From sequence record MH445380.1: a stretch of 64,000 nucleotides of DNA; one strand, written 5' to 3'. The position numbers and the translations under genes are program-made. This document shows, in pieces, positions 4,233 to 38,713 of the stretch. The DNA is from Escherichia phage P1. Numbering within the stretch: position 1 is the first letter of the stretch; every line of letters starts with the position of its first letter. Below the pieces are notes generated by a model, which made no database searches, was not told the origin of the DNA, and was given only the letters and a program-made list of their open reading frames with translations.

Positions 4233-4239
4233 GTGTTAA

Positions 4240-5305: not shown

Positions 5306-5321
5306 ATATTTATGGTGACAC

Positions 5322-8613: not shown

Positions 8614-8615
8614 AT

Positions 8616-9295: not shown

Positions 9296-10115
9296 GGCAC
9301 TGTTGCAAAGTTAGCGATGAGGCAGCCTTTTGTCTTATTCAAAGGCCTTACATTTCAAAAACTCTGCTTACCAGGCGCATTTCGCCCAGGGGATCACCAT
9401 AATAAAATGCTGAGGCCTGGCCTTTGCGTAGTGCACGCATCACCTCAATACCTTTGATGGTGGCGTAAGCCGTCTTCATGGATTTAAATCCCAGCGTGGC
9501 GCCGATTATCCGTTTCAGTTTGCCATGATCGCATTCAATCACGTTGTTCCGGTACTTAATCTGTCGGTGTTCAACGTCAGACGGGCACCGGCCTTCGCGT
9601 TTGAGCAGAGCAAGCGCGCGACCATAGGCGGGCGCTTTATCCGTGTTGATGAATCGCGGGATCTGCCACTTCTTCACGTTGTTGAGGATTTTACCCAGAA
9701 ACCGGTATGCAGCTTTGCTGTTACGACGGGAGGAGAGATAAAAATCGACAGTGCGGCCCCGGCTGTCGACGGCCCGGTACAGATACGCCCAGCGGCCATT
9801 GACCTTCACGTAGGTTTCATCCATGTGCCACGGGCAAAGATCGGAAGGGTTACGCCAGTACCAGCGCAGCCGTTTTTCCATTTCAGGCGCATAACGCTGA
9901 ACCCAGCGGTAAATCGTGGAGTGATCGACATTCACTCCGCGTTCAGCCAGCATCTCCTGCAGCTCACGGTAACTGATGCCGTATTTGCAGTACCAGCGTA
10001 CGGCCCACAGAATGATGTCACGCTGAAAATGCCGGCCTTTGAATGGGTTCATGTGCAGCTCCATCAGCAAAAGGGGATGATAAGTTTATCACCACCGACT
10101 ATTTGCAACAGTGCC
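9296..10115 (-). mobile_element. IS26 (820 bp), copy 1
   Basis: 14-bp IRs GGCACTGTTGCAAA at 9296 and its complement ending 10115; Tnp26 CDS 9348..10052 on minus strand; no 8-bp flanking duplication. Confidence 0.97.
9348..10052 (-). CDS. tnp26: IS26 transposase Tnp26 (234 aa)
   Basis: [42 protein letters not shown]...; track ORF is extended 6 codons upstream. Confidence 0.95.
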   Translation of the reverse strand: MNPFKGRHFQRDIILWAVRWYCKYGISYRELQEMLAERGVNVDHSTIYRWVQRYAPEMEKRLRWYWRNPSDLCPWHMDETYVKVNGRWAYLYRAVDSRGRTVDFYLSSRRNSKAAYRFLGKILNNVKKWQIPRFINTDKAPAYGRALALLKREGRCPSDVEHRQIKYRNNVIECDHGKLKRIIGATLGFKSMKTAYATIKGIEVMRALRKGQASAFYYGDPLGEMRLVSRVFEM

Positions 10116-10500
10116 ATATCAAGCGACTTCTCCTATCCCCTGGGAACACATCAATCTCACCGGAGAATATCGCTGGCCAAAGCCTTAGCGTAGGATTCCG
10201 CCCCTTCCCGCAAACGACCCCAAACAGGAAACGCAGCTGAAACGGGAAGCTCAACACCCACTGACGCATGGGTTGTTCAGGCAGTACTTCATCAACCAGC
10301 AAGGCGGCACTTTCGGCCATCCGCCGCGCCCCACAGCTCGGGCAGAAACCGCGACGCTTACAGCTGAAAGCGACCAGGTGCTCGGCGTGGCAAGACTCGC
10401 AGCGAACCCGTAGAAAGCCATGCTCCAGCCGCCCGCATTGGAGAAATTCTTCAAATTCCCGTTGCACATAGCCCGGCAATTCCTTTCCCTGCTCTGCCAT
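10116..10500 (-). pseudogene. IS91-family-like transposase N-terminal fragment (zinc-ribbon CxxC...CxxC), truncated by IS26
   Basis: First ~128 codons MAEQGKELPGYVQREFEEFLQCGRLEHGFLRVRCESCHAEHLVAFSCKRRGFCPSCGARRM; frame continues artefactually into IS26. Confidence 0.45.
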
Positions 10501-10502
10501 AA

Positions 10503-10540
10503 GGGGTCTGACGCTCAGTGGAACGAAAACTCACGTTAAG
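10503..10540. repeat. Tn2/Tn3-type 38-bp inverted repeat (bla end)
   Basis: GGGGTCTGACGCTCAGTGGAACGAAAACTCACGTTAAG. Confidence 0.85.
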
Positions 10541-10649
10541 GGATTTTGGTCATGAGATTATCAAAAAGGATCTTCACCTAGATCCTTTTAAATTAAAAAT
10601 GAAGTTTTAAATCAATCTAAAGTATATATGAGTAAACTTGGTCTGACAG

Positions 10650-11522
<873 letters not shown>

Positions 11523-11692
11523 TCAATATTATTGAAGCATTTACCAGGGTTATTGTCTCATGAGCGGATACATATTTGAATGTATTTAGAAAAATAAACA
11601 AATAGGGGTTCCGCGCACATTTCCCCGAAAAGTGCCACCTGACGTCTAAGATACCATTATTATCATGACATTAACCTATAAAAATAGGCGTA

Positions 11693-12851
<1,159 letters not shown>

Positions 12852-13111
12852 CATTTATGAATGTTCCTGTTATGGCTTATGTTCAAGAAAGCATTGCCCC
12901 TGAAATGATGGGCAAGGTGTTTTCCCTTTTGATGACCGCCATGACTCTTTCTATGCCGATAGGCTTACTTGTTGCAGGTCCGGTTGTTGAGGTTATAGGT
13001 GTTAATACATGGTTTTTCTGGTCTGGTGTTGCGTTGATAGTAAACGCTGTTCTCTGCCGCATTCTGACACGACGCTATGACAAAGTAACAATGAAACCGC
13101 AAGTGGACTGA
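12852..13111 (+). pseudogene. mef(B): MFS efflux gene 3-prime remnant (260 bp), consistent with the mef(B) remnant reported beside sul3
   Basis: C-terminal MFS transmembrane segment ...PIGLLVAGPVVEVIGVNTWFFWSGVALIVNAVL...; begins at the IS26 boundary. Confidence 0.55.
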
Positions 13112-13256
13112 AAAAAGGACCGGGTTGATGATAATTTGTAGTGGTGAGCTTCTGGGAGTACAAAACAAAGTGCTCAAAATTGTCGGGCTCATGGCGTTTA
13201 ACGGTATTAATTTCGCTTATAATAATCTTTCTATAATAGCCTAAAGGAGAATATCT

Positions 13257-14120
13257 ATGATACCTAATAGCGAAAATAAAAGAGTATGGTTTATTACCGG
13301 AGCAAGCAAGGGGCTTGGCTATGCTTTTACATGCGCCGCCTTGAAAGCCGGGGATAAAGTTGTTGCAGTTGCAAGGACTATCGATAATTTGGCGAAGCTA
13401 GAAGAAACATATCAAGAGAGCTTACTGCCATTAAACCTCGATGTTACAGATAGGGAGGCTGTTTTTTCTACGGTTGAAACAGCAGTTAAACATTTCGGTA
13501 GGCTTGATATTGTTGTTAATAATGCGGGTATCATGACTATGGGTATGATTGAAGAACTAAACGAATCCGATGCTCGGAAACTAATGGACACAAACTTTTT
13601 TGGAGCTCTTTGGGTTTGTCAGGCAGTGATGCCCTATTTGAGGTCGCAGCGTTCTGGACATATCATACAGATTACAAGCATTGGCGCTATTATCTCGGGT
13701 CCGATGTCTGGTATTTACAGTGCAAGTAAATTTGCGCTGGAAGGAATGAGTGAAGCCTTAGCAAAAGAAGCGGAACATTTCGGAGTGAAACTCACTATGG
13801 TGGAACCAGGAGGATATTGGACAGATTTATACACTTCGATGAGTTACAGCAATCCATTAGATTCATACGGTACACTGCGCGATGAGCTGGCGAAACAGTA
13901 TTCCGAAGATTCGGTCGATAGTGATCCTTCCTTGGCAGCGGAAGCCCTTATGAAATTAGTAGCCAGCAATAATCCGCCTTTGAGGCTTATCCTTGGCAGC
14001 ATGGTATACGATTTGGCGATGGATACCTTAAAAGCACGGATGGCTACCTGGGAAGAATGGGAAGCTGTTAGCCGTGCATCAGAAAAGGCTATTCCTGCAC
14101 CGGAGAGATATGGAGTATAA
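13257..14120 (+). CDS. Short-chain dehydrogenase/reductase (SDR) family oxidoreductase
   Basis: N-terminal TGASKGLGYA Rossmann motif, NNAG motif, YSASK catalytic motif. Confidence 0.8.
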   Translation: MIPNSENKRVWFITGASKGLGYAFTCAALKAGDKVVAVARTIDNLAKLEETYQESLLPLNLDVTDREAVFSTVETAVKHFGRLDIVVNNAGIMTMGMIEELNESDARKLMDTNFFGALWVCQAVMPYLRSQRSGHIIQITSIGAIISGPMSGIYSASKFALEGMSEALAKEAEHFGVKLTMVEPGGYWTDLYTSMSYSNPLDSYGTLRDELAKQYSEDSVDSDPSLAAEALMKLVASNNPPLRLILGSMVYDLAMDTLKARMATWEEWEAVSRASEKAIPAPERYGV

Positions 14121-14157
14121 TACCAAACATGGTTTTTGAGGCAAGGACGAAACTATC

Positions 14158-14403
14158 ATGAAAATTGAAATTATGGAATATAACCCGGATTGGACAAAGA
14201 ATTTTGAAGAAGAGAAAATAAAATTGCTCCATTTTTTCGGTTCTCATGCCGTAGCCATTGAACATATCGGAAGCACGGCGATACCCAATCAACGGGCGAA
14301 ACCGGTTATAGATATATTTATTGGCGTTTCGCCTTTTGCTGAACTACCTTTTATCAGCGCATTTTTAATGCAAAGGAGTATCACCACACTCCGACAGATA
14401 TGA
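14158..14403 (+). pseudogene. GrpB-family protein N-terminal fragment
   Basis: MKIEIMEYNPDWTKNFEEEKIKLL...IEHIGSTAIPNQRAKPVIDI...; too short for a full GrpB protein. Confidence 0.4.
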
Positions 14404-14871
14404 CAGGCAGATATTTGTTTGCAAAATATACAAATGAAGTTTGGACCCATAATCTTCTTGCTTTGGTGTAGGTATAATACCCAAAAACGAAGTTTATGCG
14501 GAACAGGATAACACCTCGAAATCGGAGTTTATATGGCTTCGTGGGGGAGTTATGTGTTTGAGCTTTGTCGCATTAACGCGAATCAGGGGTTGACGGCAGA
14601 AATAGACTGGAATTACACTTCTTGGAGTCGGCGTTGCCGGAAAATTCTGATTGGATTAGTTGTTCGGGGTGCGAAAACAGTCGTAGTTCGGGGAAAAAAC
14701 CGAATTTTGACCCAAAACCGCGAAAAACTCGAAATGACAGTTCCTATCAGTTTTCATAATGAATTAAAACAAAAAAATTAGGCTGCAAAGATAGGGAAAA
14801 TGTGTCAATTTGCGTAAGTGATAATTAGTCAATTAAGATAAATGCTACTTTTGTAATCAAAGCAAAATGAT

Positions 14872-15663
14872 ATGAGCAAGATTTTTGGAATCGTAAATAT
14901 AACCACCGATAGTTTTTCCGATGGAGGACTTTATTTAGATACAGATAAGGCAATTGAGCATGCTCTGCATTTGGTTGAAGATGGAGCAGATGTGATTGAT
15001 TTGGGAGCCGCTTCCAGTAATCCTGATACAACTGAAGTGGGCGTTGTGGAAGAAATCAAAAGACTCAAACCTGTCATTAAGGCTTTAAAAGAAAAAGGCA
15101 TTTCTATTTCTGTTGATACATTTAAACCTGAGGTTCAGAGTTTTTGCATAGAACAAAAGGTTGATTTTATTAATGATATTCAAGGTTTTCCTTATCCTGA
15201 GATTTATTCAGGCTTGGCAAAGTCAGATTGCAAACTTGTGTTGATGCACTCCGTTCAGCGAATTGGTGCAGCTACTAAAGTTGAAACGAATCCGGAAGAG
15301 GTTTTTACTTCCATGATGGAATTTTTTAAAGAAAGAATTGCTGCTTTAGTTGAGGCTGGTGTAAAGCGTGAACGAATTATTCTTGATCCGGGTATGGGCT
15401 TCTTTTTAGGCTCTAATCCAGAAACATCTATTCTTGTTTTGAAGCGTTTCCCTGAAATTCAAGAAGCTTTTAATTTGCAAGTAATGATTGCAGTGTCACG
15501 GAAATCATTCTTAGGTAAAATAACTGGAACCGATGTGAAATCTCGTTTAGCACCAACTCTTGCAGCAGAAATGTATGCATACAAAAAAGGTGCAGATTAT
15601 CTCCGCACCCATGATGTTAAGTCTTTATCAGATGCCTTGAAAATATCCAAAGCCCTAGGTTAG
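14872..15663 (+). CDS. sul3: Sulfonamide-resistant dihydropteroate synthase Sul3 (263 aa)
   Basis: 263-aa DHPS-like ORF in the qacH-IS-sul3 context typical of sul3 integrons. Confidence 0.88.
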   Translation: MSKIFGIVNITTDSFSDGGLYLDTDKAIEHALHLVEDGADVIDLGAASSNPDTTEVGVVEEIKRLKPVIKALKEKGISISVDTFKPEVQSFCIEQKVDFINDIQGFPYPEIYSGLAKSDCKLVLMHSVQRIGAATKVETNPEEVFTSMMEFFKERIAALVEAGVKRERIILDPGMGFFLGSNPETSILVLKRFPEIQEAFNLQVMIAVSRKSFLGKITGTDVKSRLAPTLAAEMYAYKKGADYLRTHDVKSLSDALKISKALG

Positions 15664-15665
15664 TT

Positions 15666-15941
15666 TTATTTTTTTAGCTTTCTAAATGAATATGCTATAC
15701 TTGCTCTGAAGTTGTGTTGGCGTACTTGACTTAGGTCTGGATCTTTCGAACTGTTACTAAGAGGGTAATCATAGCCAAACATAAACTGGAAATGTCCTAA
15801 TTCTAAACCTGTTCCAATACCTACACTATAATCAAGAGGACTTAAACTTCCATCACTTCCAAAAGGTTTTGTGTACTTCTCTTGAGTTTTCGTAGCTAAA
15901 TAGTAGTGTTTGTTGGTAAATCCAAATAATCCAATATTCAA
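15666..15941 (-). pseudogene. Outer-membrane beta-barrel protein C-terminal fragment
   Basis: Ends ...RASIAYSF-RKLKK with alternating hydrophobic pattern; only ~90 codons, no start context. Confidence 0.3.
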
Positions 15942-16596
15942 TCTTGCGACCGGGAAAGTCCTCTTGAAAGTACCACAAGTTCGCGGGATGGAGTTTTATC
16001 CCAGCTGCATCGAGAAAGGCATGCGCAGTGAGCGTGCTCTCAAGCTCGCCATCGCCGAAATGTATGTCAAAGGAGTAAGTACCCGCAGGGTCTCGGATAT
16101 CGTCGAAATTCTTTGTGGCACCGAAGTCAGCTCGTCCCAGGTCAGCAGGCTGGCAAAGGAGCTCGATGAAGAGATTACGTCTTGGAAGGCGCAGCCTGTC
16201 GGACAGATTCAATACTTGGTACTTGATGCGACCTATGAATCGGTTCGCGTCGGTTCCCATGTGGTCAAGCAGGCGCTTCTAGTGGCTATTGGCGTTGATT
16301 ACAGCGGGAATCGGCATATTCTTGACGCCGAAGTCGCGAACAGTGAGGCAGAGGTAAACTGGCGTTCCTTTCTCGAGGGTCTCGTACGACGAGGGATGCA
16401 CGGCCTGCGAATGATCACCAGTGATGACCACTCAGGACTGCGCGCGGCAATCGATGCTGTCTTCCCTGGAATTCTGTGGCAACGCTGCCAGTTTCATCTG
16501 CAGCAGAATGCCCACTCCTACGTCACGAAAAAAGATGAGATCCCGCTGATAGCCGCTGATATTCGGAAGGTGTTCAATCGGAATATGTCAAGATAG
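15910..16596 (+). pseudogene. IS256-family (IS440-like) transposase, internal fragment
   Basis: Aligns to the central DDE region of IS256-type transposases (...EMYVKGVSTRRVSDIVEILCG...WQRCQFHLQQN...); both termini missing. Confidence 0.7.
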
Positions 16597-16772
16597 TTTA
16601 TGCCAGATTTTTGAGAGGTTTGCATCAAGCAGCCTTCGAAAGAGGACGGCATGACATTGAGACCGGCAAGGCGTCGTAGATACGCACTTTCCCAGTACGC
16701 CACCGTAAGGGGTTTTTCTCTTTGGCAGCAAGAATGGTTTGGTTTCTTTTTTCCTCGGCGCCGTAGGCGTCC

Positions 16773-16832
16773 GACTAACACCTGAATTAAGCCGCGCCGC
16801 GAAGCGGCGTCGGCTTGAATGAACTGTTAGAT
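16773..16832 (-). other. attC recombination site of the qacH cassette
   Basis: ctaacacctgaattaagccgcgccgcgaagcggcgtcggcttgaatgaactgttagatg, imperfect palindrome with core sites. Confidence 0.6.
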
Positions 16833-16842
16833 GCCAGCCCGA

Positions 16843-17181
16843 TCAATGTGCGCTGACCTTGGATAGCAGATTTAGAACGGCGACGCCACTAACGATAAGT
16901 CCCATGCCAACGAACGCCCACAAGTCTAGTTTCTGGCCATGGAAGATCCAAGCGATAGCTGCCACAAGTACGATGCCGAGGCCAGCCCAAACAGCATAAG
17001 CAATGCCGACCGGGATGGACTTGAGTGCGAGAGAGAGGAAATAGAACGCAAGCCCGTAGCCAGCCACAACTACAACAGAAGGAACTAACTTGGTGAATCC
17101 ATGGCTGGACTTCAGTGCGGAAGTTGCGACGACCTCACCAAATATTGCAATAGCCAGAAAGAGCCAGTTCTTCACGTGCAA
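16843..17181 (-). CDS. qacH: SMR-family quaternary ammonium efflux protein QacH/QacL-type
   Basis: 112-aa four-TM SMR ORF with conserved membrane glutamate; cassette position after aadA1. Confidence 0.85.
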
Positions 17182-17283
17182 TCTCCTCTACGGTATGAAG
17201 GATAAATAGTGGTGGCTATGAGTTGCCAAAAACAGTCTTGCGGCTGTCGATTTTCTGTGAGCATACGCAACGCCAAATCTGGC

Positions 17284-17343
17284 ATCTAACGCTTGAGTTA
17301 AGCCGCGCCGCGAAGCGGCGTCGGCTTGAACGAATTGTTAGAC
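17284..17343 (-). other. attC site of the aadA1 cassette
   Basis: Reverse complement reads gtctaacaattcgttcaagccgacgccgcttcgcggcgcggcttaactcaagcgttagatg. Confidence 0.75.
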
Positions 17344-17344
17344 A

Positions 17345-18136
17345 TTATTTGCCGACTACCTTGGTGATCTCGCCTTTCACGTAGTGAACAAATTCTTCCA
17401 ACTGATCTGCGCGGGAGGCCAAGCGATCTTCTTCTTGTCCAAGATAAGCCTGTCTAGCTTCAAGTATGACGGGCTGATACTGGGCCGGCAGGCGCTCCAT
17501 TGCCCAGTCGGCAGCGACATCCTTCGGCGCGATTTTGCCGGTTACTGCGCTGTACCAAATGCGGGACAACGTAAGCACTACATTTCGCTCATCGCCAGCC
17601 CAGTCGGGCGGCGAGTTCCATAGCGTTAAGGTTTCATTTAGCGCCTCAAATAGATCCTGTTCAGGAACCGGATCAAAGAGTTCCTCCGCCGCTGGACCTA
17701 CCAAGGCAACGCTATGTTCTCTTGCTTTTGTCAGCAAGATAGCCAGATCAATGTCGATCGTGGCTGGCTCGAAGATACCTGCAAGAATGTCATTGCGCTG
17801 CCATTCTCCAAATTGCAGTTCGCGCTTAGCTGGATAACGCCACGGAATGATGTCGTCGTGCACAACAATGGTGACTTCTACAGCGCGGAGAATCTCGCTC
17901 TCTCCAGGGGAAGCCGAAGTTTCCAAAAGGTCGTTGATCAAAGCTCGCCGCGTTGTTTCATCAAGCCTTACGGTCACCGTAACCAGCAAATCAATATCAC
18001 TGTGTGGCTTCAGGCCGCCATCCACTGCGGAGCCGTACAAATGTACGGCCAGCAACGTCGGTTCGAGATGGCGCTCGATGACGCCAACTACCTCTGATAG
18101 TTGAGTCGATACTTCGGCGATCACCGCTTCCCTCAT
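17345..18136 (-). CDS. aadA1: Aminoglycoside 3''-adenylyltransferase AadA1 (263 aa)
   Basis: ORF MREAVIAEVSTQLSEVVGVIERHLEPTLLAVHLYGSAVDGGLKPHSDIDLLVTV... Confidence 0.95.
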   Translation of the reverse strand: MREAVIAEVSTQLSEVVGVIERHLEPTLLAVHLYGSAVDGGLKPHSDIDLLVTVTVRLDETTRRALINDLLETSASPGESEILRAVEVTIVVHDDIIPWRYPAKRELQFGEWQRNDILAGIFEPATIDIDLAILLTKAREHSVALVGPAAEELFDPVPEQDLFEALNETLTLWNSPPDWAGDERNVVLTLSRIWYSAVTGKIAPKDVAADWAMERLPAQYQPVILEARQAYLGQEEDRLASRADQLEEFVHYVKGEITKVVGK

Positions 18137-18228
18137 GATGTTTAACGCCTGAGCTCAGCCGACCGAAACCGCGTAGCGGTTTTGGGTCGGCTGCAGCGAT
18201 TTGTTGGGCGATAGCTTGCCACATTCTC

Positions 18229-19488
18229 TCAACGATTGGGATTTGATGTACTTTCCGCACTTTGTAGCGCGACCACATCATGCTCCCCCTGGCCGCGAGA
18301 GCCCTTCACTCGGGAAACACAAGACAGACCGAGCACGACTGTTGCAAGGGTCAAACAGTACACGACAACCGGCCAAGCCGTGTTGCGCGGCAACAGCGAA
18401 ATGATCAACGTTCCGATGCTTCCTAGCAGTACACCGCCCAAGCAGAAGTAGACTGCCGTGACCGTTCCAGCAACATGGTCGAATCCTCGAAGAGCGCCAT
18501 TGGGCGCCACAGATACCGCTGTGGCGACACCAATACCCACTAGCCACATTGGAGCAATAAAGCCTAACACGGACTGCAAAGCCCATATTTCGGTGATGGC
18601 AAGCAATACTGCTCCAGCTATCAGGCATCCCATTCCCATTCGCAAGACACTTGGGCTGCCCCACTTGGGTATCACACGCCCCATAAAACGAGCCGTAAAC
18701 ACCATGGCAATTGCCACTGTGGCGAACAGCAGGCTGAAGCCAAGCTGAGACACACCTTGCCTGCCCATCATTAGTCCGGGCGCAATGGAGAAAAAGACGA
18801 AGAAGCTACCCATTCCAGCGGCGTAACACAACGTGTACAACCAGAAGTTCAGGCACTTAACGGGGAGTAGCAGCTGCGACCATTGCAAGCCCGCAACTCG
18901 TTGCACCCGGGTTTCAGGCCAGAATCGCCACGCTGCTGCAGATGCAGCGATCATGCCCAAACCTAGAAACGCAAAGATAGCCCGCCACCCAAGCCACATG
19001 TCGACGAGCGCTCCGAGCAATGGGCCTACCGCCGGGACCATGGCCAGCATGGATCCGAGTATGCCGTAAATGACATTACTTTCCTCGCGACCTGCGTAAA
19101 TGTCACGTACTGTTGCAAATGTGGAAACAAGGCACGCCGAGGCACCACAAGCCTGAAGAATCCGAAGCCCCAGAAAGACTTCAGCCGATGACGTAAGAGC
19201 GAGGCCCATTGACGCCACAACGTAGGCGAGGCCACCTCCCAGTAGAACGGGGCGGCGCCCCAGTCGGTCCGATAGCGGTCCAAACAAGAGCTGACCGGCA
19301 CCAATCATGACCAAGTACGTTGTCAGCGTAAGCTGAATTGTGCTCGCTGTCGTACCAAGCGCGTTTGGCATAAACGGCACTGCTGGCAAGTACATGTCCA
19401 TGCCGAGTGATGCCAATAAATCGAACGGTGATAACAACAACACCGTGGCGGCAAGGGAGTACCGCCAACTAAAGTTTTTTGAGCTCAC
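18229..19488 (-). CDS. cmlA1: Chloramphenicol efflux MFS transporter CmlA1 (419 aa, GTG start inferred)
   Basis: 12-TM MFS ORF; track ORF extends 16 codons upstream of the VSSKNFSWRY start; long 5-prime leader before the aadA2 attC. Confidence 0.9.
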   Translation of the reverse strand: MSSKNFSWRYSLAATVLLLSPFDLLASLGMDMYLPAVPFMPNALGTTASTIQLTLTTYLVMIGAGQLLFGPLSDRLGRRPVLLGGGLAYVVASMGLALTSSAEVFLGLRILQACGASACLVSTFATVRDIYAGREESNVIYGILGSMLAMVPAVGPLLGALVDMWLGWRAIFAFLGLGMIAASAAAWRFWPETRVQRVAGLQWSQLLLPVKCLNFWLYTLCYAAGMGSFFVFFSIAPGLMMGRQGVSQLGFSLLFATVAIAMVFTARFMGRVIPKWGSPSVLRMGMGCLIAGAVLLAITEIWALQSVLGFIAPMWLVGIGVATAVSVAPNGALRGFDHVAGTVTAVYFCLGGVLLGSIGTLIISLLPRNTAWPVVVYCLTLATVVLGLSCVSRVKGSRGQGEHDVVALQSAESTSNPNR

Positions 19489-19688
19489 GAAACCATCTCC
19501 TTGAACAAAGGATTTGGCGGCGCTCCCGTAGAGCAAAAGGATTCATGAGAACGCCGCAACAACCGAAAAATGAAGGTTGCTGCGGCTTACTTGTCTGCGT
19601 TCTTGGAAGTGCTCATCTGCTGACTATCTCATGATTGAATTTGAATCGTAACAACTTTCAAGCAACTCTGCAAGGAGCCTTATTGTGC

Positions 19689-19748
19689 GCCCAACGCCGG
19701 AGTTAAGCCGCCGCGCGTAGCGCGGTCGGCTTGAACGAATTGTTAGAC
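19689..19748 (-). other. attC site of the aadA2 cassette
   Basis: gagttaagccgccgcgcgtagcgcggtcggcttgaacgaattgttagac. Confidence 0.65.
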
Positions 19749-19749
19749 A

Positions 19750-20541
19750 TCATTTACCAACTGACTTGATGATCTCGCCTTTCACAAAGCGAATAAATTC
19801 TTCCAAGTGATCTGCGCGTGAGGCCAAGTGATCTTCTTTTTGTCCCAGATAAGCTTGCTTAGCTTCAAGTAAGACGGGCTGATACTGGGCAGGTAGGCGT
19901 TTTATTGCCCAGTCGGCAGCGACATCCTTCGGCGCGATTTTGCCGGTTATTGCGCTGTACCAAATGCGGGACAACGTAAGCACTACATTTCGCTCATCGC
20001 CGGCCCAGTCGGGCTGCGAGTTCCATAGCTTCAAGGTTTCCCTCAGCGCCTCGAATAGATCCTGTTCAGGAACCGGGTCAAAGAATTCCTCCGCTGCCGG
20101 ACCTACCAAGGCAACGCTATGTTCTCTTGCTTTTGTAAGCAGGATAGCTAGATCAATGTCGATCATGGCTGGCTCGAAGATACCCGCAAGAATGTCATTG
20201 CGCTGCCATTCTCCAAATTGCAGCTCGCGCTTAGCCGGATAACGCCACGGGATGATGTCGTCATGCACGACAAGGGTGACTTCTATAGCGCGGAGCGTCT
20301 CGCTCTCGCCAGGGAAAGCCGAAGCCTCCATAAGGTCATTGAGCAATGCTCGCCGCGTCGTTTCATCAAGCTTTACGGCCACAGTAACCAACAAATCAAT
20401 ATCGCTGTATGGCTTCAGGCCGCCATCCACTGCGGAGCCGTACAAATGCACGGCCAGCAACGTTGATTCCAGATGGCGCTCAATGACGCTTAGCACCTCT
20501 GATAGTTGGTTCGAAATTTCGATGGTCACCGCTACCCTCAT
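19750..20541 (-). CDS. aadA2: Aminoglycoside 3''-adenylyltransferase AadA2
   Basis: ORF MRVAVTIEISNQLSEVLSVIERHLESTLLAVHLYGSAVDGGLKPYSDIDLLVTV...; paralog of aadA1. Confidence 0.9.
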   Translation of the reverse strand: MRVAVTIEISNQLSEVLSVIERHLESTLLAVHLYGSAVDGGLKPYSDIDLLVTVAVKLDETTRRALLNDLMEASAFPGESETLRAIEVTLVVHDDIIPWRYPAKRELQFGEWQRNDILAGIFEPAMIDIDLAILLTKAREHSVALVGPAAEEFFDPVPEQDLFEALRETLKLWNSQPDWAGDERNVVLTLSRIWYSAITGKIAPKDVAADWAIKRLPAQYQPVLLEAKQAYLGQKEDHLASRADHLEEFIRFVKGEIIKSVGK

Positions 20542-20598
20542 GATGTCTAACACCAGAATTAAGCCGCGCCGCGAAGCGGCGTCGGCTTGAATGACTTG

Positions 20599-21207
20599 TT
20601 AGCGCCCACCTGCGACGCCAACCTCTTGCCACTGATAGTACTGCTTAGTAGCAATGGCCAGCATATCCAGGTCCTCCGGCGTGTCTCCGTACGCGTAGAT
20701 GGTCGGATATGTCGCCAGGTCGTAGCGCTCACGGACCAAGCGAGCCTTCTCCGTCAAGACGCACTGCCGCCCTTCATAGCGGCCCGTTAGGATTCCGTCC
20801 GACTGTTGCAAGGAAGAACAGATGAGCTCAACGCCGTGCGAGTCGCACCACGGCTCCAAGTAAGCCTCAAGTCCGCCGGAAACAACGACAACCTTGTGCC
20901 CCTGCGCTTTGTGCCATGCGATGCGCTGCATTGCCTCGCCGCGGAGGGTATTGGGCAGGTAGCTCTGAGCGAAGTCACGACCTTGGGCCTCCAGGACCGA
21001 GGCCGGGATGCCGCTGTAAGCGAAGCGAACGATGACGCGACGGATCAGGGTGCCAGACAAGATCCCAATCTTATACCCAAGCACGAGCGGCGCCAGAAGC
21101 AGTTGTCCCACAAGCAGTCGACGTCGGCTCACGGACCGCCGCACAAAATCCGGCATCGTCTCGCGAGTGGTAATTGTGCCATCGAAGTCAAAGAGTGCGA
21201 GAGACAT
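20599..21207 (-). CDS. psp: HAD-family hydrolase, putative phosphoserine phosphatase cassette (psp)
   Basis: N-terminal FDFDGT HAD motif; position between estX and aadA2 as in estX-psp-aadA2-cmlA1-aadA1-qacH arrays. Confidence 0.75.
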   Translation of the reverse strand: MSLALFDFDGTITTRETMPDFVRRSVSRRRLLVGQLLLAPLVLGYKIGILSGTLIRRVIVRFAYSGIPASVLEAQGRDFAQSYLPNTLRGEAMQRIAWHKAQGHKVVVVSGGLEAYLEPWCDSHGVELICSSLQQSDGILTGRYEGRQCVLTEKARLVRERYDLATYPTIYAYGDTPEDLDMLAIATKQYYQWQEVGVAGGR

Positions 21208-21302
21208 GCGTTGTGGGCGCTAACGCCTTGCTCACCGGAAAATTGCGAGCGCAGCGAGTAATTTTTCCGGTGCAGCAACTTGTTGTACGGTGCAACCGAT
21301 AG

Positions 21303-22145
21303 CTATGACGTTTGCCCCTTAATCGCCTGGATAATCCTCGGCCAGTCTTCATGATGCAACTCATGTCCCGTGCCTTCGAGTGTCAGCATTTTTGAACCAC
21401 GAATCGCATCTTTCAGTGCCAACCCATGCACATAAGGAAGTACAGGATCCTCCGTGCCGTGAATGATCAAAGTTGGTACAGCTATCTCATTTAATCTCCC
21501 GAGCCATCTCTCGCCACCACCTAAAGTAGTGTGGTTGAATGTTGTCAGGATATTCGGAGTGCGATCAAAATTTAACTCAGCGATGTTTTGTATCTTCTCA
21601 GCGTCAAAAGCATGCGCAGTACCTGAGTTGATTCGCCACGCTCCGACCTGATACGCGACGACAGCATCTCTATCAGACCAATCCAGCGATTCCGCCCGTT
21701 GGTGATACTCAATGATGGCAGGATCAAAAGCGGGCATATCCGGATCTGCATCTGCAAGCCGTTCTGAAGCAATCAGCGTCAAGCTCTTCACACGTTTCGG
21801 ATACTTGAGAGCTACAAGCTGGGAAAGAAATCCCCCCAAAGACATGCCGACTAAATGAGCAGCTTCCAGACCATAACCATCAATGACGCGAACCACATCA
21901 TCTGCTAATTCTTCAACGGAATATGGAGCCTGACCTGGCTCATAGCTTGTTGATTTCCCGGTATCACGGTGGTCGTACCGGATCACATAGCGACCCATTT
22001 TGGCAAGTTGGGAACAAAACTCATCAGGCCACCACACCGCAGACGACATTGCCCCCATGATCAGAATAATGGGTTCATGGGCCGGGTCGCCGAATGATTC
22101 GGTATAGAGTGAAATCGCTTTATCAACAACTACCTTTTCTTTCAT
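21303..22145 (-). CDS. estX: Alpha/beta-hydrolase esterase cassette EstX (280 aa)
   Basis: GMSLGG nucleophile elbow; ATG at 22145 (MKEKVVVDK); track ORF extends into attI1. Confidence 0.8.
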
Positions 22146-22311
22146 ACTTAAATTGCCTTCGAGTTCTACGTACAACTTTGTTTTAGGGCGACTGCCCTGC
22201 TGCGTAACATCGTTGCTGCTCCATAACATCAAACATCGACCCACGGCGTAACGCGCTTGCTGCTTGGATGCTCGAGGCATAGACTGTACAAAAAAACAGT
22301 CATAACAAGCC
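22146..22311. other. attI1 integron recombination region (first integron)
   Basis: Sequence between the intI1 start and the first cassette; mirrored at 25124..25269 in the second integron. Confidence 0.6.
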
Positions 22312-23040
22312 ATGAAAACCGCCACTGCGCCGTTACCACCGCTGCGTTCGGTCAAGGTTCTGGACCAGTTGCGTGAGCGCATACGCTACTTGCATTACAG
22401 TTTACGAACCGAACAGGCTTATGTCCACTGGGTTCGTGCCTTCATCCGTTTCCACGGTGTGCGTCACCCGGCAACCTTGGGCAGCAGCGAAGTCGAGGCA
22501 TTTCTGTCCTGGCTGGCGAACGAGCGCAAGGTTTCGGTCTCCACGCATCGTCAGGCATTGGCGGCCTTGCTGTTCTTCTACGGCAAGGTGCTGTGCACGG
22601 ATCTGCCCTGGCTTCAGGAGATCGGAAGACCTCGGCCGTCGCGGCGCTTGCCGGTGGTGCTGACCCCGGATGAAGTGGTTCGCATCCTCGGTTTTCTGGA
22701 AGGCGAGCATCGTTTGTTCGCCCAGCTTCTGTATGGAACGGGCATGCGGATCAGTGAGGGTTTGCAACTGCGGGTCAAGGATCTGGATTTCGATCACGGC
22801 ACGATCATCGTGCGGGAGGGCAAGGGCTCCAAGGATCGGGCCTTGATGTTACCCGAGAGCTTGGCACCCAGCCTGCGCGAGCAGCTGTCGCGTGCTGTCG
22901 CGTGCACGGGCATGGTGGCTGAAGGACCAGGCCGAGGGCCGCAGCGGCGTTGCGCTTCCCGACGCCCTTGAGCGGAAGTATCCGCGCGCCGGGCATTCCT
23001 GGCCGTGGTTCTGGGTTTTTGCGCAGCACACGCATTCGAC
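22312..23040 (+). pseudogene. intI1: intI1 pseudogene: 10-bp tandem duplication frameshift plus 3-prime truncation
   Basis: Identical to the intact intI1 (24110..25123) up to codon ~196; then ctgtcgcgtg duplicated at ~22885..22904; frame lost; junction with tnpR sequence at 23040/23041. Confidence 0.85.
22399..22427 (-). promoter_or_regulatory. Integron Pc promoter (TGGACA-17 bp-TAAACT)
   Basis: Hexamers read on the cassette (minus) strand inside the intI1 5-prime region. Confidence 0.6.
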
Positions 23041-23431
23041 CAATACCCTCGCGCTGACGCTCGCGGATCAGGGCGCGCTCGAACTCGGCGAACGCGCCCA
23101 TCACCGAGAGCATCAGGTTCGCCATCGGAGAGTCTTCGCCAGTAAAACTGAGGTGTTCCTTGACGAATTCGATATGCACGCCGCGTTGTGTCAGCGTTTG
23201 CACGATCCGGCGCAAATCATCGAGATTGCGCGCCAGGCGATCCATGCTATGCACCACCACGGTGTCGCCGGTGCGGGCGAAGCTTATCAGCGCTTCCAGT
23301 TGCGGACGCTTGACATCCTTGCCGGATGCCTTGTCGCTAAAAGCGCGATCAACCTTGACGCCTTCCAGTTGCCGTTCCGGGTTCTGGTCGAAGGTGCTGA
23401 CCCTGATATACCCAATGCGCTGTCCAGTCAT
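23041..23431 (-). pseudogene. tnpR: Tn21-type tnpR, 5-prime ~130 codons only (3-prime end deleted at junction with intI1)
   Basis: Identical to 8786..9176; the 208-aa track ORF is a read-through into intI1 antisense. Confidence 0.85.
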
Positions 23432-23556
23432 GGAATTCCCTGCAAAATGTCAGGGAAGACTCTATGACCTTCAACGAGATATGTCAATAAATTCAAAATT
23501 CAATCCTATCCTGACGCAATTTACACATGGCATCTGACATCAGGTTAGGGTATGCC
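23432..23556. promoter_or_regulatory. Tn21 res region (second copy)
   Basis: Direct repeat of 9177..9295, here continuing into tnpM. Confidence 0.6.
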
Positions 23557-23907
23557 TCAACCTGACGGCGGCGAATCACAAGCGTCCGGTTTGACGCTGG
23601 TTTCGGTCGCAGTGCTGGCCCGCGCCTGGAAGCGCTGATAGCACTCCAGCCCGCAGAAATGCTCCACGTACTCGGCCCCTTCCGGCGTGAAGGCGGCATC
23701 GAGCGGGATTTCCTTGCAGCACACGCAGCAACTGGTGCTCGGTTCATTGGCGTTCATGGTGGTGTTCCTCCATTGGTTGACGAAGCCGACGAAGGCCGCC
23801 GCCGGCATCGGCCTGGCGAACAGGAAACCCTGCACCGTGTCGCAACCCGCCTGCCGCAACCACGCAAGGCAGTCGGGTGTTTCCACACCCTCGGCTACCA
23901 CCTCCAT
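23557..23907 (-). CDS. tnpM: Tn21 TnpM-like ORF (116 aa)
   Basis: ATG lies at the inner edge of IRi (23905..23907), as expected for the Tn21 urf2M arrangement; the longer track ORF crosses IRi. Confidence 0.65.
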
Positions 23908-23932
23908 TGTCGTTTTCAGAAGACGGCTGCAC
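23908..23932. repeat. Class 1 integron IRi (25 bp)
   Basis: TGTCGTTTTCAGAAGACGGCTGCAC. Confidence 0.85.
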
Positions 23933-24109: not shown

Positions 24110-25123
24110 CTACCTCTCACTAGTGAGGGGCGGCAGCGCATCAAGCGGTGAGCGCACTCCGGCACCGCCAACTTTCAGCACATGCGTGTAAATCATCGTC
24201 GTAGAGACGTCGGAATGGCCGAGCAGATCCTGCACGGTTCGAATGTCGTAACCGCTGCGGAGCAAGGCCGTCGCGAACGAGTGGCGGAGGGTGTGCGGTG
24301 TGGCGGGCTTCGTGATGCCTGCTTGTTCTACGGCACGTTTGAAGGCGCGCTGAAAGGTCTGGTCATACATGTGATGGCGACGCACGACACCGCTCCGTGG
24401 ATCGGTCGAATGCGTGTGCTGCGCAAAAACCCAGAACCACGGCCAGGAATGCCCGGCGCGCGGATACTTCCGCTCAAGGGCGTCGGGAAGCGCAACGCCG
24501 CTGCGGCCCTCGGCCTGGTCCTTCAGCCACCATGCCCGTGCACGCGACAGCTGCTCGCGCAGGCTGGGTGCCAAGCTCTCGGGTAACATCAAGGCCCGAT
24601 CCTTGGAGCCCTTGCCCTCCCGCACGATGATCGTGCCGTGATCGAAATCCAGATCCTTGACCCGCAGTTGCAAACCCTCACTGATCCGCATGCCCGTTCC
24701 ATACAGAAGCTGGGCGAACAAACGATGCTCGCCTTCCAGAAAACCGAGGATGCGAACCACTTCATCCGGGGTCAGCACCACCGGCAAGCGCCGCGACGGC
24801 CGAGGTCTTCCGATCTCCTGAAGCCAGGGCAGATCCGTGCACAGCACCTTGCCGTAGAAGAACAGCAAGGCCGCCAATGCCTGACGATGCGTGGAGACCG
24901 AAACCTTGCGCTCGTTCGCCAGCCAGGACAGAAATGCCTCGACTTCGCTGCTGCCCAAGGTTGCCGGGTGACGCACACCGTGGAAACGGATGAAGGCACG
25001 AACCCAGTGGACATAAGCCTGTTCGGTTCGTAAACTGTAATGCAAGTAGCGTATGCGCTCACGCAACTGGTCCAGAACCTTGACCGAACGCAGCGGTGGT
25101 AACGGCGCAGTGGCGGTTTTCAT
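24110..25123 (-). CDS. intI1: Class 1 integron integrase IntI1 (337 aa, intact)
   Basis: 337-aa tyrosine recombinase ORF ending ...[24 protein letters not shown]. Confidence 0.95.
25008..25036 (+). promoter_or_regulatory. Integron Pc promoter (TGGACA-17 bp-TAAACT) of second integron
   Basis: tggaca at 25008..25013 and taaact at 25031..25036. Confidence 0.6.
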
Positions 25124-25269
25124 GGCTTGTTATGACTGTTTTTTTGTACAGTCTATGCCTCGGGCATCCAAGCAGCAAGCGCGTTACGCCGTGGGTCGAT
25201 GTTTGATGTTATGGAGCAGCAACGATGTTACGCAGCAGGGCAGTTGCCCTAAAACAAAGTTAACCCAGG

Positions 25270-25752
25270 ATGAGAACCTTGAAAGTATCATTGATGGCTG
25301 CGAAAGCGAAAAACGGCGTGATTGGTTGCGGTCCAGACATACCCTGGTCCGCGAAAGGGGAGCAGCTACTTTTTAAAGCATTGACCTACAATCAGTGGCT
25401 TCTGGTGGGTCGCAAGACGTTTGAATCTATGGGCGCACTCCCCAATAGGAAATACGCGGTCGTTACCCGCTCAGGTTGGACATCAAATGATGACAATGTA
25501 GTTGTATTTCAGTCAATCGAAGAGGCCATGGACAGGCTAGCTGAATTCACCGGTCACGTTATAGTGTCTGGTGGCGGAGAAATTTACCGAGAAACATTAC
25601 CCATGGCCTCTACGCTCCACTTATCGACGATCGACATCGAGCCAGAGGGGGATGTTTTCTTCCCGAGTATTCCAAATACCTTCGAAGTTGTTTTTGAGCA
25701 ACACTTTACTTCAAACATTAACTATTGCTATCAAATTTGGAAAAAGGGTTAA
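25270..25752 (+). CDS. dfrA14: Trimethoprim-resistant dihydrofolate reductase, DfrA5/DfrA14 group
   Basis: DHFR ORF ...[18 protein letters not shown]...[12 protein letters not shown]; likely TTG start at 25279 giving 157 aa; allele not resolvable by eye. Confidence 0.8.
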
Positions 25753-25963: not shown

Positions 25964-26239
25964 TTGAACCGGATGCCGGTCCTCACTGATGAAGAAGTGA
26001 ACACCGTACGGGAATCGTGCCGGCAGCTTGGAGCTATCGGCCGGAACCTCAACCAGGTGGCCAGGGCCTTGAACATCGAGTTCAGGGAAAGTGACAAGCT
26101 CAAGCAAGAGGCCATCGAAAAACTGGCCGAACGGATCGACCAGCATTTGGACCATGTGTCTGAGCTGTTCGATAAGACCTGGAGCCGGTGGCACGATTGT
26201 CATTTTCAGAAGACGACTGCACCAGTTGATTGGGCGTAA
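25964..26239 (+). pseudogene. MobC-like mobilisation protein fragment
   Basis: 91-codon ORF MNRMPVLTDEEVNTVRESCRQLGAIGRNLNQVARALN...; 3-prime end overlaps the IRt-like repeat. Confidence 0.4.
26198..26222. repeat. Class 1 integron IRt-like 25-bp repeat next to IS6100
   Basis: TGTCATTTTCAGAAGACGACTGCAC, same orientation as IRi. Confidence 0.75.
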
Positions 26240-31325: not shown

Positions 31326-32186
31326 ATGCGTTATATTCGCCTGTGTATTATCTCCCTGTTAGCCACCCTGCCGCTGGCGGTACACGCCAGCCCGCAGCCG
31401 CTTGAGCAAATTAAACAAAGCGAAAGCCAGCTGTCGGGCCGCGTAGGCATGATAGAAATGGATCTGGCCAGCGGCCGCACGCTGACCGCCTGGCGCGCCG
31501 ATGAACGCTTTCCCATGATGAGCACCTTTAAAGTAGTGCTCTGCGGCGCAGTGCTGGCGCGGGTGGATGCCGGTGACGAACAGCTGGAGCGAAAGATCCA
31601 CTATCGCCAGCAGGATCTGGTGGACTACTCGCCGGTCAGCGAAAAACACCTTGCCGACGGCATGACGGTCGGCGAACTCTGCGCCGCCGCCATTACCATG
31701 AGCGATAACAGCGCCGCCAATCTGCTGCTGGCCACCGTCGGCGGCCCCGCAGGATTGACTGCCTTTTTGCGCCAGATCGGCGACAACGTCACCCGCCTTG
31801 ACCGCTGGGAAACGGAACTGAATGAGGCGCTTCCCGGCGACGCCCGCGACACCACTACCCCGGCCAGCATGGCCGCGACCCTGCGCAAGCTGCTGACCAG
31901 CCAGCGTCTGAGCGCCCGTTCGCAACGGCAGCTGCTGCAGTGGATGGTGGACGATCGGGTCGCCGGACCGTTGATCCGCTCCGTGCTGCCGGCGGGCTGG
32001 TTTATCGCCGATAAGACCGGAGCTAGCAAGCGGGGTGCGCGCGGGATTGTCGCCCTGCTTGGCCCGAATAACAAAGCAGAGCGCATTGTGGTGATTTATC
32101 TGCGGGATACGCCGGCGAGCATGGCCGAGCGAAATCAGCAAATCGCCGGGATCGGCGCGGCGCTGATCGAGCACTGGCAACGCTAA
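31326..32186 (+). CDS. blaSHV-12: SHV-type class A beta-lactamase with Q35, S238, K240 (SHV-12-like ESBL), 286 aa
   Basis: [38 protein letters not shown]...[12 protein letters not shown]...; substitutions relative to SHV-1 as I recall it; track ORF has a 26-codon artefactual extension. Confidence 0.88.
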
Positions 32187-35746: not shown

Positions 35747-38713
35747 ATGCCGCGTCGCTTGATCCTCTCGGCCACGGAGCGGGACACCCTGCTTGCGCTG
35801 CCGGAAAGCCAGGATGACCTGATCCGCTACTACACCTTCAACGACTCCGACCTGTCGCTGATCCGCCAGCGACGCGGCGACGCCAACCGCCTCGGCTTCG
35901 CCGTGCAGCTCTGCCTGCTGCGCTACCCCGGTTACGCGCTGGGAACCGACAGCGAGCTGCCCGAGCCGGTCATCCTGTGGGTGGCGAAGCAAGTCCAGGC
36001 CGAGCCGGCGAGCTGGGCAAAGTACGGCGAGCGCGACGTGACCCGTCGCGAGCATGCCCAGGAACTGCGCACCTACCTGCAACTGGCCCCGTTCGGCCTG
36101 TCCGACTTCCGCGCCCTGGTGCGCGAGCTAACCGAGCTGGCCCAGCAGACCGACAAAGGCTTGCTGCTGGCCGGTCAGGCCCTGGAGAGCCTACGGCAGA
36201 AACGACGCATCCTGCCGGCGCTGAGCGTGATTGACCGGGCCTGCTCGGAAGCCATTGCGCGAGCCAATCGGCGGGTCTACCGCGCCCTGGTCGAACCACT
36301 CACGGACTCGCATCGGGCCAAGCTGGACGAGCTGTTGAAGCTCAAGGCCGGCAGCAGCATCACCTGGTTGACCTGGCTGCGCCAGGCACCGCTGAAACCC
36401 AACTCTCGGCACATGCTGGAACACATCGAGCGGCTGAAGACATTTCAGTTGGTGGACTTGCCCGAAGGCCTGGGCCGGCACATCCACCAGAACCGCCTGC
36501 TCAAGCTGGCCCGCGAGGGTGGGCAGATGACGCCCAAAGACCTCGGTAAGTTCGAGCCGCAGCGCCGCTACGCGACCCTGGCCGCCGTGGTGCTGGAGAG
36601 CACCGCGACCGTGATCGATGAGCTGGTCGATCTGCATGACCGCATCCTGGTCAAGCTGTTCAGCGGCGCGAAGCACAAGCATCAGCAGCAGTTCCAGAAG
36701 CAGGGCAAGGCGATCAACGACAAGGTGCGCCTGTACTCCAGGATCGGCCAGGCGCTGCTGGAAGCGAAGGAAAGCGGCAGCGACCCCTATGCCGCCATCG
36801 AGGCGGTGATTCCCTGGGACGAGTTCACCGAGAGCGTCAGCGAGGCCGAGCTGCTGGCCCGGCCGGAAGGCTTCGACCACCTGCACCTGGTCGGCGAGAA
36901 CTTCGCCACCCTGCGCCGTTACACGCCGGCCTTGCTGGAGGTGCTGGAACTGCGCGCCGCGCCGGCCGCGCAAGGCGTGCTGGCAGCCGTGCAGACCCTG
37001 CGTGAGATGAACGCCGACAACCTGCGCAAGGTGCCGGCCGATGCACCCACGGCCTTCATCAAGCCGCGCTGGAAGCCGCTGGTGATCACCCCGGAAGGCC
37101 TCGACCGGAAATTCTACGAAATCTGCGCCCTGTCCGAGCTGAAGAACGCCCTGCGCTCCGGCGACATCTGGGTCAAGGGCTCGCGGCAGTTCCGCGACTT
37201 CGACGACTACCTGCTGCCGGCCGAGAAGTTCGCCGCACTCAAGCGCGAGCAGGCCCTGCCCCTGGCGATCAACCCGAACAGCGACCAGTACCTGGAAGAG
37301 CGTTTGCAGCTGCTGGACGAGCAGTTGGCCACCGTCACCCGCCTGGCCAAGGACAACGAGCTGCCCGATGCCATCCTCACCGAGTCAGGGCTGAAAATCA
37401 CCCCGCTGGATGCGGCGGTGCCGGATCGGGCGCAGGCGCTGATCGACCAAACCAGCCAGTTACTGCCGCGCATCAAGATCACCGAATTGCTGATGGACGT
37501 GGACGACTGGACGGGCTTCAGCCGCCACTTCACCCACTTGAAGGACGGGGCCGAGGCCAAAGACAGGACGTTGCTGCTGTCCGCAATCCTCGGTGATGCG
37601 ATCAACCTCGGGCTGACCAAGATGGCCGAGTCGAGCCCCGGCCTGACCTACGCCAAGCTGTCCTGGCTGCAAGCCTGGCACATCCGCGACGAAACCTATT
37701 CGGCGGCCTTGGCCGAGCTGGTCAACCACCAGTATCGCCACGCCTTTGCCGCCCACTGGGGCGACGGCACGACCTCATCCTCCGATGGCCAGCGCTTCCG
37801 CGCGGGTGGCCGGGGCGAGAGCACCGGGCACGTCAACCCGAAGTACGGTAGCGAGCCGGGACGGCTGTTCTATACCCACATCTCCGACCAATACGCGCCA
37901 TTCCACACCAAGGTGGTCAATGTCGGCCTGCGCGACTCAACCTACGTGCTCGACGGCCTGCTGTACCACGAGTCCGACCTGCGGATCGAGGAGCACTACA
38001 CCGACACGGCCGGCTTCACCGATCACGTCTTTGCCCTGATGCACCTGCTAGGCTTCCGCTTCGCGCCGCGCATCCGCGACCTCGGCGAAACCAAGCTGTA
38101 CGTGCCGCAGGGCGTGCAAGCCTACCCGACGTTGCGCCCGCTGATCGGCGGCACCCTGAACATCAAGCACGTGCGTGCCCACTGGGACGACATCCTGCGC
38201 CTGGCCAGCTCGATCAAGCAGGGCACCGTCACCGCCTCGCTGATGCTGCGCAAGCTCGGCAGCTACCCGCGCCAGAACGGACTGGCCGTGGCCCTGCGCG
38301 AGCTGGGCCGGATCGAGCGCACGCTGTTCATCCTGGACTGGCTGCAAAGTGTTGAACTGCGCCGCCGCGTGCATGCCGGCCTGAACAAAGGTGAGGCGCG
38401 CAACTCGCTGGCCAGGGCGGTGTTCTTCAACCGCCTTGGGGAAATCAGGGATCGGAGCTTCGAGCAGCAGCGCTACCGGGCCAGCGGCCTCAACCTGGTG
38501 ACGGCGGCTATCGTGCTGTGGAACACGGTGTACCTGGAACGCGCCACCCAGGGGTTGGTCGAGGCCGGCAAGCCGGTGGACGGCGAGCTGCTGCAATTCC
38601 TGTCGCCGCTGGGCTGGGAGCACATCAACCTAACCGGCGATTACGTCTGGCGGCAGAGCCGCAGACTGGAAGACGGGAAGTTTCGGCCCTTACGGATGCC
38701 CGGAAAACCTTAG
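35747..38713 (+). CDS. tnpA: Tn1721-type transposase TnpA (988 aa)
   Basis: 988-aa Tn3-family transposase, diverged from the Tn21 TnpA at 5647..8613. Confidence 0.95.

Follow-up and report, generated by a model that had tools for sequence, protein, structure and literature searches.

The locus considered here raises a simple question: does the sul3-type class 1 integron of a P1-like phage-plasmid still encode an integrase of its own and, if it does not, how was the gene lost and could another copy take its place? An earlier note, made by reading the letters of this DNA alone, had proposed that the intI1 gene of the integron was inactivated by a 10-bp tandem duplication and by fusion to a truncated tnpR. 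The analysis described below largely upholds that reading, corrects two of its positions by a single codon and a single base pair, respectively, and adds a proposal for the origin of the fusion.

The phage-plasmid and its resistance region

The window (the whole stretch analysed, 64,000 nucleotides) belongs to a P1-like (IncY) phage-plasmid. It shares 100% identity with pRHB13-C03_3 (CP057845.1) over positions 39001-64000 and encodes a C1 repressor, Cre and a 2,255-aa DarB-like methylase. Between c8 and ref lies a resistance region of 33.1 kb (5614-38746), which ends on the left in a Tn21 tnp-end inverted repeat and on the right in an inverted repeat of the Tn1721 type, with an intact 988-aa tnpA reading outward at each terminus (5609-5651 and 38709-38751). 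A 5-bp direct duplication, GTTAA, flanks the region, and the corresponding site is empty in pRHB13-C03_3. This arrangement suggests that a hybrid element was inserted into the P1 plasmid as a single unit by means of its mismatched ends.

The left part of the region is made of Tn21 tnpA and tnpR, a res cut by IS26, blaTEM between two IS26 copies, the sul3 integron and the joint that ends it. To the right of the joint follow res, tnpM, IRi, intI1, dfrA14, mobC, IS6100 and mphR-mrx-mph(A), and the right end carries IS26, blaSHV-12, ygbI and a complete Tn1722-like element. The features on both sides of the joint, together with the second tnpR copy, are the following:

8616-9176, minus strand: full-length second Tn21 tnpR, 186 aa, followed by a res cut by IS26 at 9295
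22174-22311, minus strand: 5'-conserved-segment DNA from the first cassette to the start of intI1, with attI1 (alignment)
22312-23041, plus strand: defective intI1, nt 1-719/720 of 1014 plus a 10-bp insertion (alignment, table of open reading frames)
22399-22427, minus strand: cassette promoter Pc, with -35 TGGACA at 22422-22427, a 17-nt spacer and -10 TAAACT at 22399-22404
22885-22894 and 22895-22904, plus strand: tandem duplication of CTGTCGCGTG, 2 x 10 bp (alignment)
23040-23042: novel joint between intI1 (nt 719/720) and tnpR (nt 391/390) (three-way base comparison)
23041-23431, minus strand: truncated Tn21 tnpR, codons 1-130 of 186, ATG at 23431, 100% identical to 8786-9176 and to R100
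23432-23568: complete Tn21 res, with the centre of site I placed at about 23551-23552 (alignment with Tn1721-type res and with a natural Tn21/Tn1721 hybrid)
23557-23907, minus strand: tnpM (urf2 remnant) of the dfrA14 integron (table of open reading frames)
23908-23932, minus strand: IRi of the dfrA14 integron (exact 25-bp match)
24110-25123, minus strand: intact intI1 of the dfrA14-mobC-IS6100 integron, 337 aa, R32/H39
25279-25752: dfrA14 (NCBIfam and identity to an annotated region of NZ_CP082979.1)

Platform, promoter and cassette array of the sul3 integron

The cargo of the integron, read from attI1, was assigned by NCBIfam matches above cut-off or by annotation transferred from NZ_CP082979.1:

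12032-22173, minus strand: whole cargo of the sul3 integron
21303-22130, minus strand: estX (NCBIfam EstX above cut-off)
20599-21207, minus strand: psp (annotation transfer)
19750-20553, minus strand: aadA2 (NCBIfam AadA above cut-off)
18229-19536, minus strand: cmlA1 (NCBIfam CmlA above cut-off)
17345-18136, minus strand: aadA1 (NCBIfam AadA above cut-off)
between aadA1 and the IS440 remnant, minus strand: qacL/qacH (annotation transfer)
15910-16596, minus strand: IS440 remnant (annotation transfer)
14872-15663, minus strand: sul3 (NCBIfam Sul3 above cut-off)
13257-14120, minus strand: open reading frame for an SDR protein (annotation transfer)
between the SDR frame and IS26, minus strand: delta-mefB (annotation transfer)
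12032-12851: IS26, at the far end of the cargo

An IS256-family transposase within the cargo also gave an NCBIfam match above cut-off. This content, with estX-psp-aadA2-cmlA1-aadA1 as the array and qacH/L-IS440-sul3 in place of the qacEdelta1-sul1 3'-conserved segment, is that of the sul3-associated atypical class 1 integrons.

The 138 bp of 22174-22311 show 2 mismatches to the equivalent segment beside the intact intI1 (25124-25261) and are identical to those of NZ_CP082979.1, an integron with an intact intI1. The attI1 site thus lies next to intI1 in the sul3 integron. Read against the published features of the 5'-conserved segment, the same stretch presumably contains an inactive P2 (TTGTTA-14 nt-TACAGT) and, at 22284-22299, a LexA-box-like palindrome, CTGTACAAAAAAACAG. 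The Pc promoter, which the earlier note had described as retained, was indeed found, inside intI1 and, as far as the sequence tells, reading into the cassettes; the same Pc sequence is present in the intact intI1 copy. With TGGACA and TAAACT separated by 17 nt, we take it to be the variant PcH1, paired with an R32/H39 integrase. What the sul3 integron lacks is IRi, the outer end of the 5'-conserved segment: the integron stops at nt 720 of intI1, and the sole IRi in the window belongs to the dfrA14 integron.

Alignment of 12029-23041 with positions 2001-13003 of the compared plasmid segment of NZ_CP082979.1 gave 0 mismatches over 11,003 aligned bases, the only gap being the 10-bp duplication. 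To judge from this comparison, the array appears unaltered whether its own integrase is alive or dead, and the loss of the integrase has left no visible trace in it. The cassettes are expected to be transcribed still from the intact PcH1, with the resistance phenotype unchanged.

Two lesions in the intI1 gene

The pairwise alignment that the earlier note had suggested, of the defective gene with the reverse complement of 24110-25123, confirmed the tandem duplication at 22885-22904. Positions 22312-22883 match nt 1-572 of the intact gene with 0 mismatches and, after an insertion of 10 nt, positions 22894-23041 match nt 573-720, again with 0 mismatches. The sequence CTGTCGCGTG is single in the intact gene (24541-24550, minus strand) and has no further occurrence in the window. 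Written in the register GCTGTCGCGT, the duplication is followed by GC, that is, by 2 bp of microhomology. Replication slippage at this GC would be the most likely source of the duplication, and hence of the frameshift.

The readable open reading frame (22312-22971) encodes 219 aa, namely 195 native IntI1 residues and a 24-aa out-of-frame tail, with the stop at 22969-22971. The frame is therefore lost after codon 195; the shift had been recognized before, with its position estimated at about codon 196. With residues counted on the translation of the intact copy, the frameshifted product keeps only R146 and K171 and lacks H277, R280, H303 and Y312; we take these six, from the tyrosine recombinase literature, to be the RKHRHY residues of IntI1, with Y312 as the nucleophile. 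The sul3 copy is accordingly not a complete intI1 carrying all six. Either lesion alone, the duplication or the truncation at the joint, would cost four of the six catalytic residues, including the nucleophile, and removal of the extra 10 bp would not repair the gene, since the DNA for H277, R280, H303 and Y312 is physically gone. The sul3 integron consequently has no integrase of its own, in line with the earlier note, and would depend for any cassette movement on a source other than itself. Because the flanks are perfect both against the intact copy and against NZ_CP082979.1, the lesions are considered recent.

The joint between intI1 and tnpR

Base-by-base comparison showed that the C at 23041 is ambiguous, as it fits nt 720 of intI1 as well as nt 391 of tnpR, while the neighbouring bases on both sides are unambiguous. 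The junction previously set at 23040/23041 is thus correctly located to within 1 bp, and the refinement consists of a microhomology of 1 bp, the shared C. From 23041 onward, nt 391-1 of tnpR are present on the strand opposite to the defective intI1, so that the two genes converge and their truncated 3' ends abut; as had been stated, the partner is an internal point of a Tn21 tnpR deprived of its 3' end. No insertion-sequence end, transposon inverted repeat or GTT core was found at 23041 in this comparison. Taken together, the bases at this point indicate an illegitimate join.

Two more specific mechanisms were considered and set aside. Truncation of intI1 by IS26 was rejected, as IS26 ends (GGCACTGTTGCAAA) occur only at 9296, 10115, 12032, 12851, 30433 and 31252. 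Recombination by IntI1 at a secondary site is unsupported, as neither partner sequence has a GTT core at the joint.

The stretch 23041-23550 (tnpR and res) is 100% identical to the Tn21 sequence of R100 (NC_002134.1) and of many other plasmids. Its tnpR reads through antisense intI1 as a fusion open reading frame of 208 aa (22805-23431), in which the catalytic domain is kept and the C-terminal helix-turn-helix domain is gone, unlike the full-domain resolvase (serine recombinase, 186 aa) of the Tn21 subgroup. Because the DNA-binding domain is absent, the truncated TnpR should be non-functional.

The same part of Tn21 occurs twice in the region. Self-BLAST and a comparison of the ends identified 8786-9295 and 23041-23550 as a perfect 510-bp direct repeat of the 5' part of tnpR plus res, which implies at least one further recombination step in the region. 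The boundaries of the res subsites were deduced from a natural Tn21/Tn1721 hybrid res, whose switch point falls at the centre of site I. At 9295, which corresponds to 23550, the left res copy breaks off 1-2 bp from that centre, and its distal half-site is missing. Excision of the intervening block by TnpR through directly repeated res sites was also considered; it looks unlikely, given a left res without its distal half-site. Judging from these sequences, the resolvase probably cannot excise the 14.26-kb block, while RecA could.

A related exchange is visible in NZ_CP082979.1: at 13850-13873 of the compared segment, a hybrid res connects the Tn21 tnpM of the sul3 integron with a Tn1721-like tnpR/tnpA, the outcome of a natural res x res exchange involving the Tn21 and Tn1721 types.

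Occurrence of the two lesions in other sequences

Among the matches listed for 72,556 PLSDB plasmids, where full-length matches would rank first, no record covered at least 80% of 22700-23500, the interval that includes the intI1/tnpR joint, and neither did any of 5,426 complete E. coli genomes or of 50,697 phage records. A 120-nt probe for the duplication reached at best 91.7% full-length identity, which corresponds to the 10 bases being absent, in the PLSDB matches listed and in the E. coli genomes; one PLSDB record at 95% proved to carry a different small indel. The database search proposed in the earlier note for the same duplication in other sul3 integrons therefore yielded none in the collections searched. 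An exact 37-mer across the duplication and an exact 44-mer across the joint each gave 0 matches in GTDB representative genomes and JGI metagenomes. Both aberrant products (219 aa and 208 aa) were absent from an exact-sequence index of 153 billion gene positions, and a literature search for a 10-bp duplication in intI1 returned nothing relevant. The sequence comparisons confirm both lesions, which together define an allele, not recorded before, of a well-known type of decay.

Origin of the joint

In our judgement it is highly probable that the gene became a pseudogene recently through two independent lesions, a slippage duplication and an illegitimate joint, the latter arising most economically by a deletion between head-to-head modules. 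According to this proposal, two Tn21-type modules would have stood head to head, and a single deletion would have had its end points at intI1 nt 721 in the first module and at tnpR nt 392 in the second. This illegitimate event, which shows 1 bp of microhomology and involves no end of a mobile element, would have removed nt 721-1014 of intI1, IRi and the DNA beyond, and would have fused the remnant of intI1 tail to tail to codon 130 of a tnpR from the backbone of the adjacent, oppositely pointing dfrA14 integron. This model is favoured because a single event is enough and because long inverted repeats are prone to asymmetric deletion. In related plasmids, the usual layout is a sul3 integron followed by IRi-tnpM-res-tnpR-tnpA, and the dfrA14 integron occurs with the same backbone. 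In plasmid pPSJ-14_1, a sul3 integron faces another class 1 integron head to head, with Tn21 tnpR and Tn2 sequence between them, and in p1-BD-13 a dfrA14-mobC-IS6100 integron with Tn21 tnpM-res occurs separately. No precursor combining precisely these two modules in head-to-head order was found, and the joint may have formed on another replicon.

Other histories can be written for the same DNA. The joint could have been made by an inversion within a single Tn21::sul3-integron, with end points at tnpR nt 391 and intI1 nt 720, the dfrA14 side being exchanged later. An inversion in the normal order tnpA-tnpR-res-tnpM-IRi-intI1-attI1-cassettes gives exactly this convergent joint of the 5' parts of intI1 and tnpR, and the region is otherwise rearranged, with three IS26 copies and the 510-bp repeat. 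However, the reciprocal junction is absent from the window, where self-BLAST detected no extra 3' fragment of intI1, and from PLSDB, and an extra homologous exchange would be needed to explain the complete intI1 on the right, so we regard an inversion as unlikely. A history for which we hold a higher expectation, still short of an even chance, is that the 14.26-kb block 8786-23040 (in order, the 5' part of tnpR, the cut res, IS26, blaTEM, IS26, the sul3 integron and the truncated intI1) entered as a circle by a single crossover in tnpR-res, the joint being older and made elsewhere. Such a circle would have integrated into an ordinary Tn21 (tnpA-tnpR-res-tnpM-In dfrA14) that the P1 plasmid already carried. 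The perfect 510-bp direct repeat brackets the block, and taking out one repeat and the block leaves the canonical Tn21 layout; yet no independent record has the joint, hence no donor is known. Entry as a circle accounts for the repeat and not for the formation of the joint, and it complements the deletion between head-to-head modules rather than replacing it.

That the duplication, the junction or both should be artefacts of assembly or polishing was raised by the repeat-rich context, with two copies each of intI1 and tnpR, and by the fact that neither feature was present in any other public sequence searched. Misassembly of repeats, however, switches inside shared sequence, and at the joint intI1 and tnpR have just 1 bp in common; sequencing errors do not typically take the form of a clean 10-bp tandem duplication, polishing tends to equalise repeat copies, and the flanks are error-free over 11 kb. 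We therefore hold an artefact to be very improbable. Scarcely credible, finally, is the idea that the decay produced something useful, an N-terminal IntI1 fragment competing for attI1 or a TnpR catalytic-domain fragment acting as a dominant-negative partner. Both open reading frames do retain a native start, the upstream region and the first domain, and the full-length TnpR encoded at 8616-9176 is identical over the shared part. But the products occur in no other record of the exact-sequence index, there is no sign of conservation or spread, and their tails are out-of-frame or antisense read-through.

The neighbouring integron as a possible source of integrase

The integrase missing from the sul3 integron is encoded close by. 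The second intI1 had been described as intact, and it is: it lies 1.07 kb from the defective copy, in inverted orientation, and it encodes 337 aa, the very sequence annotated as WP_000845048.1 for the intI1 products of NZ_CP082979.1. The attI1 site and the array of the sul3 integron are intact as well. IntI1 supplied from another replicon is able to excise and integrate cassettes, as is well established in integron biology. It is thus a reasonable inference, consistent with the intact attI1 and array and already made in the earlier note, that the neighbouring IntI1 could act on the sul3 array in trans. Cassettes of the sul3 integron would be excised or gained only via IntI1 made elsewhere, for which the intact copy is the candidate source.

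The arrangement of the two genes allows a further thought. The 5' part of intI1 and attI1 form inverted repeats of 871 bp (22174-23044 and 24401-25261) that are 98.5% identical, and the 1.36-kb spacer between them carries the truncated tnpR, res, tnpM, IRi and the 3' end of intI1. The two head-to-head integrons might then act as one unit that shares a single integrase through inversion, an idea to which we attach little probability. If it were true, a RecA-dependent inversion with its crossover in nt 1-572 would place the intact 3' half of intI1 and IRi beside the sul3 array, the broken gene being left to the dfrA14 array, so that ownership of the live integrase would be reversible and both isomers would be present in the population. 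Such a swap of the live end of the integrase gene is plausible as chemistry, with no sign of importance.

On the far side of the dfrA14-mobC-IS6100 integron, immediately before IS6100, a 25-mer resembling IRt (26198-26222) has 2 mismatches to IRi and is oriented as IRi; it is an inverted IRt fragment of the type seen beside IS6100 in other integrons.

Comparison with known integrons

The closest relatives are the sul3 integrons of p1-BD-13 (K. pneumoniae, NZ_CP082979.1), pPSJ-14_1 (E. coli, NZ_AP027627.1) and pUR2632 (PMC12179637), whose array is estX-psp-aadA2-cmlA1-aadA1-qacH/L-IS440-sul3-orf-delta-mefB260-IS26. They sit in a backbone derived from Tn21/Tn1721 and share the delta-mefB/IS26 end found here; p1-BD-13 shows no mismatch in the 11,003 bp that extend from IS26 to nt 720 of intI1. 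In these three plasmids, a complete intI1 is followed by IRi-tnpM-res-tnpR, whereas the present gene has the duplication, stops at nt 720 and is followed by no IRi.

Truncated or frameshifted intI1 genes are common, also among sul3 integrons, and the present case differs in detail. In the P1-like plasmid pTZ20_1P, the sul3 integron carries IS26-delta-intI1(509), in which 509 bp are left (PMC6906374), and in the porcine E. coli sul3 integron (j) a 197-bp remnant of intI1 is truncated by IS26 (PMC5761274). Both resemble the present integron in being of the sul3 type and in having lost the 3' part of intI1 while keeping Pc and cassette expression. They differ from it in that no IS26 lies at the breakpoint here, where tnpR is joined directly through 1 bp of microhomology and an additional frameshift is present; moreover, the array of pTZ20_1P is a different one, dfrA12-gcuF-aadA2-cmlA-aadA1-qacI.

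Selection against the cost of an active integrase has been shown to favour frameshifted intI1 pseudogenes (Starikova et al. 2012, PMC3510236). Those alleles share with the present one a small frameshift and a premature stop in an otherwise intact integron. In contrast, their mutations lie near the start of the gene and arose in a host devoid of LexA, whereas here a 10-bp duplication is found at codon 196, in a P1-like backbone of the kind usual in E. coli and Salmonella, with a second lesion and an intact intI1 adjacent. Relief from the cost of the integrase is doubtful as an explanation in this case, because an intact intI1 lies next door. As regards the Tn21 module of R100/NR1, its canonical order tnpR-res-tnpM-IRi-intI1 is preserved here, with 23041-23550 100% identical; the differences are a tnpR without codons 131-186, no tnpA on this side, and dfrA14-mobC-IS6100 instead of the In2 array.

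The locus thus adds a further example of integrase loss in an integron of the clinical type with an unchanged cassette array, and it indicates that such a loss is possible without any insertion sequence. It raises no new question about integron function. The duplication and the joint may serve as specific markers for tracking the resistance region and its P1-like phage-plasmid host.

Other observations on the resistance region

The beta-lactamase encoded at 31329-32186 differs from SHV-1 by L35Q, G238S and E240K, the extended-spectrum pattern of SHV-12, and its gene adjoins IS26 and ygbI/deoR. The association of blaSHV-12 with this sul3 integron and with parts of Tn21/Tn1721 is known from other replicons (PMC12179637).

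If pRHB13-C03_3 (95.2 kb) is a guide to the size of the backbone, the phage-plasmid with its 33-kb insert measures about 128 kb. This is probably above the capacity of the P1 head when terminal redundancy is counted, and an oversized phage-plasmid of this kind may persist in the plasmid state alone.

Tn21-family insertions are also present in several other P1-like plasmids of PLSDB, no more than about 100-200 bp away from the same place, in the c8 (lysogeny establishment) region (5414-5813 and 38547-38946 in the window). The insertions near c8 are at differing positions, and this region may be a recurrent target.
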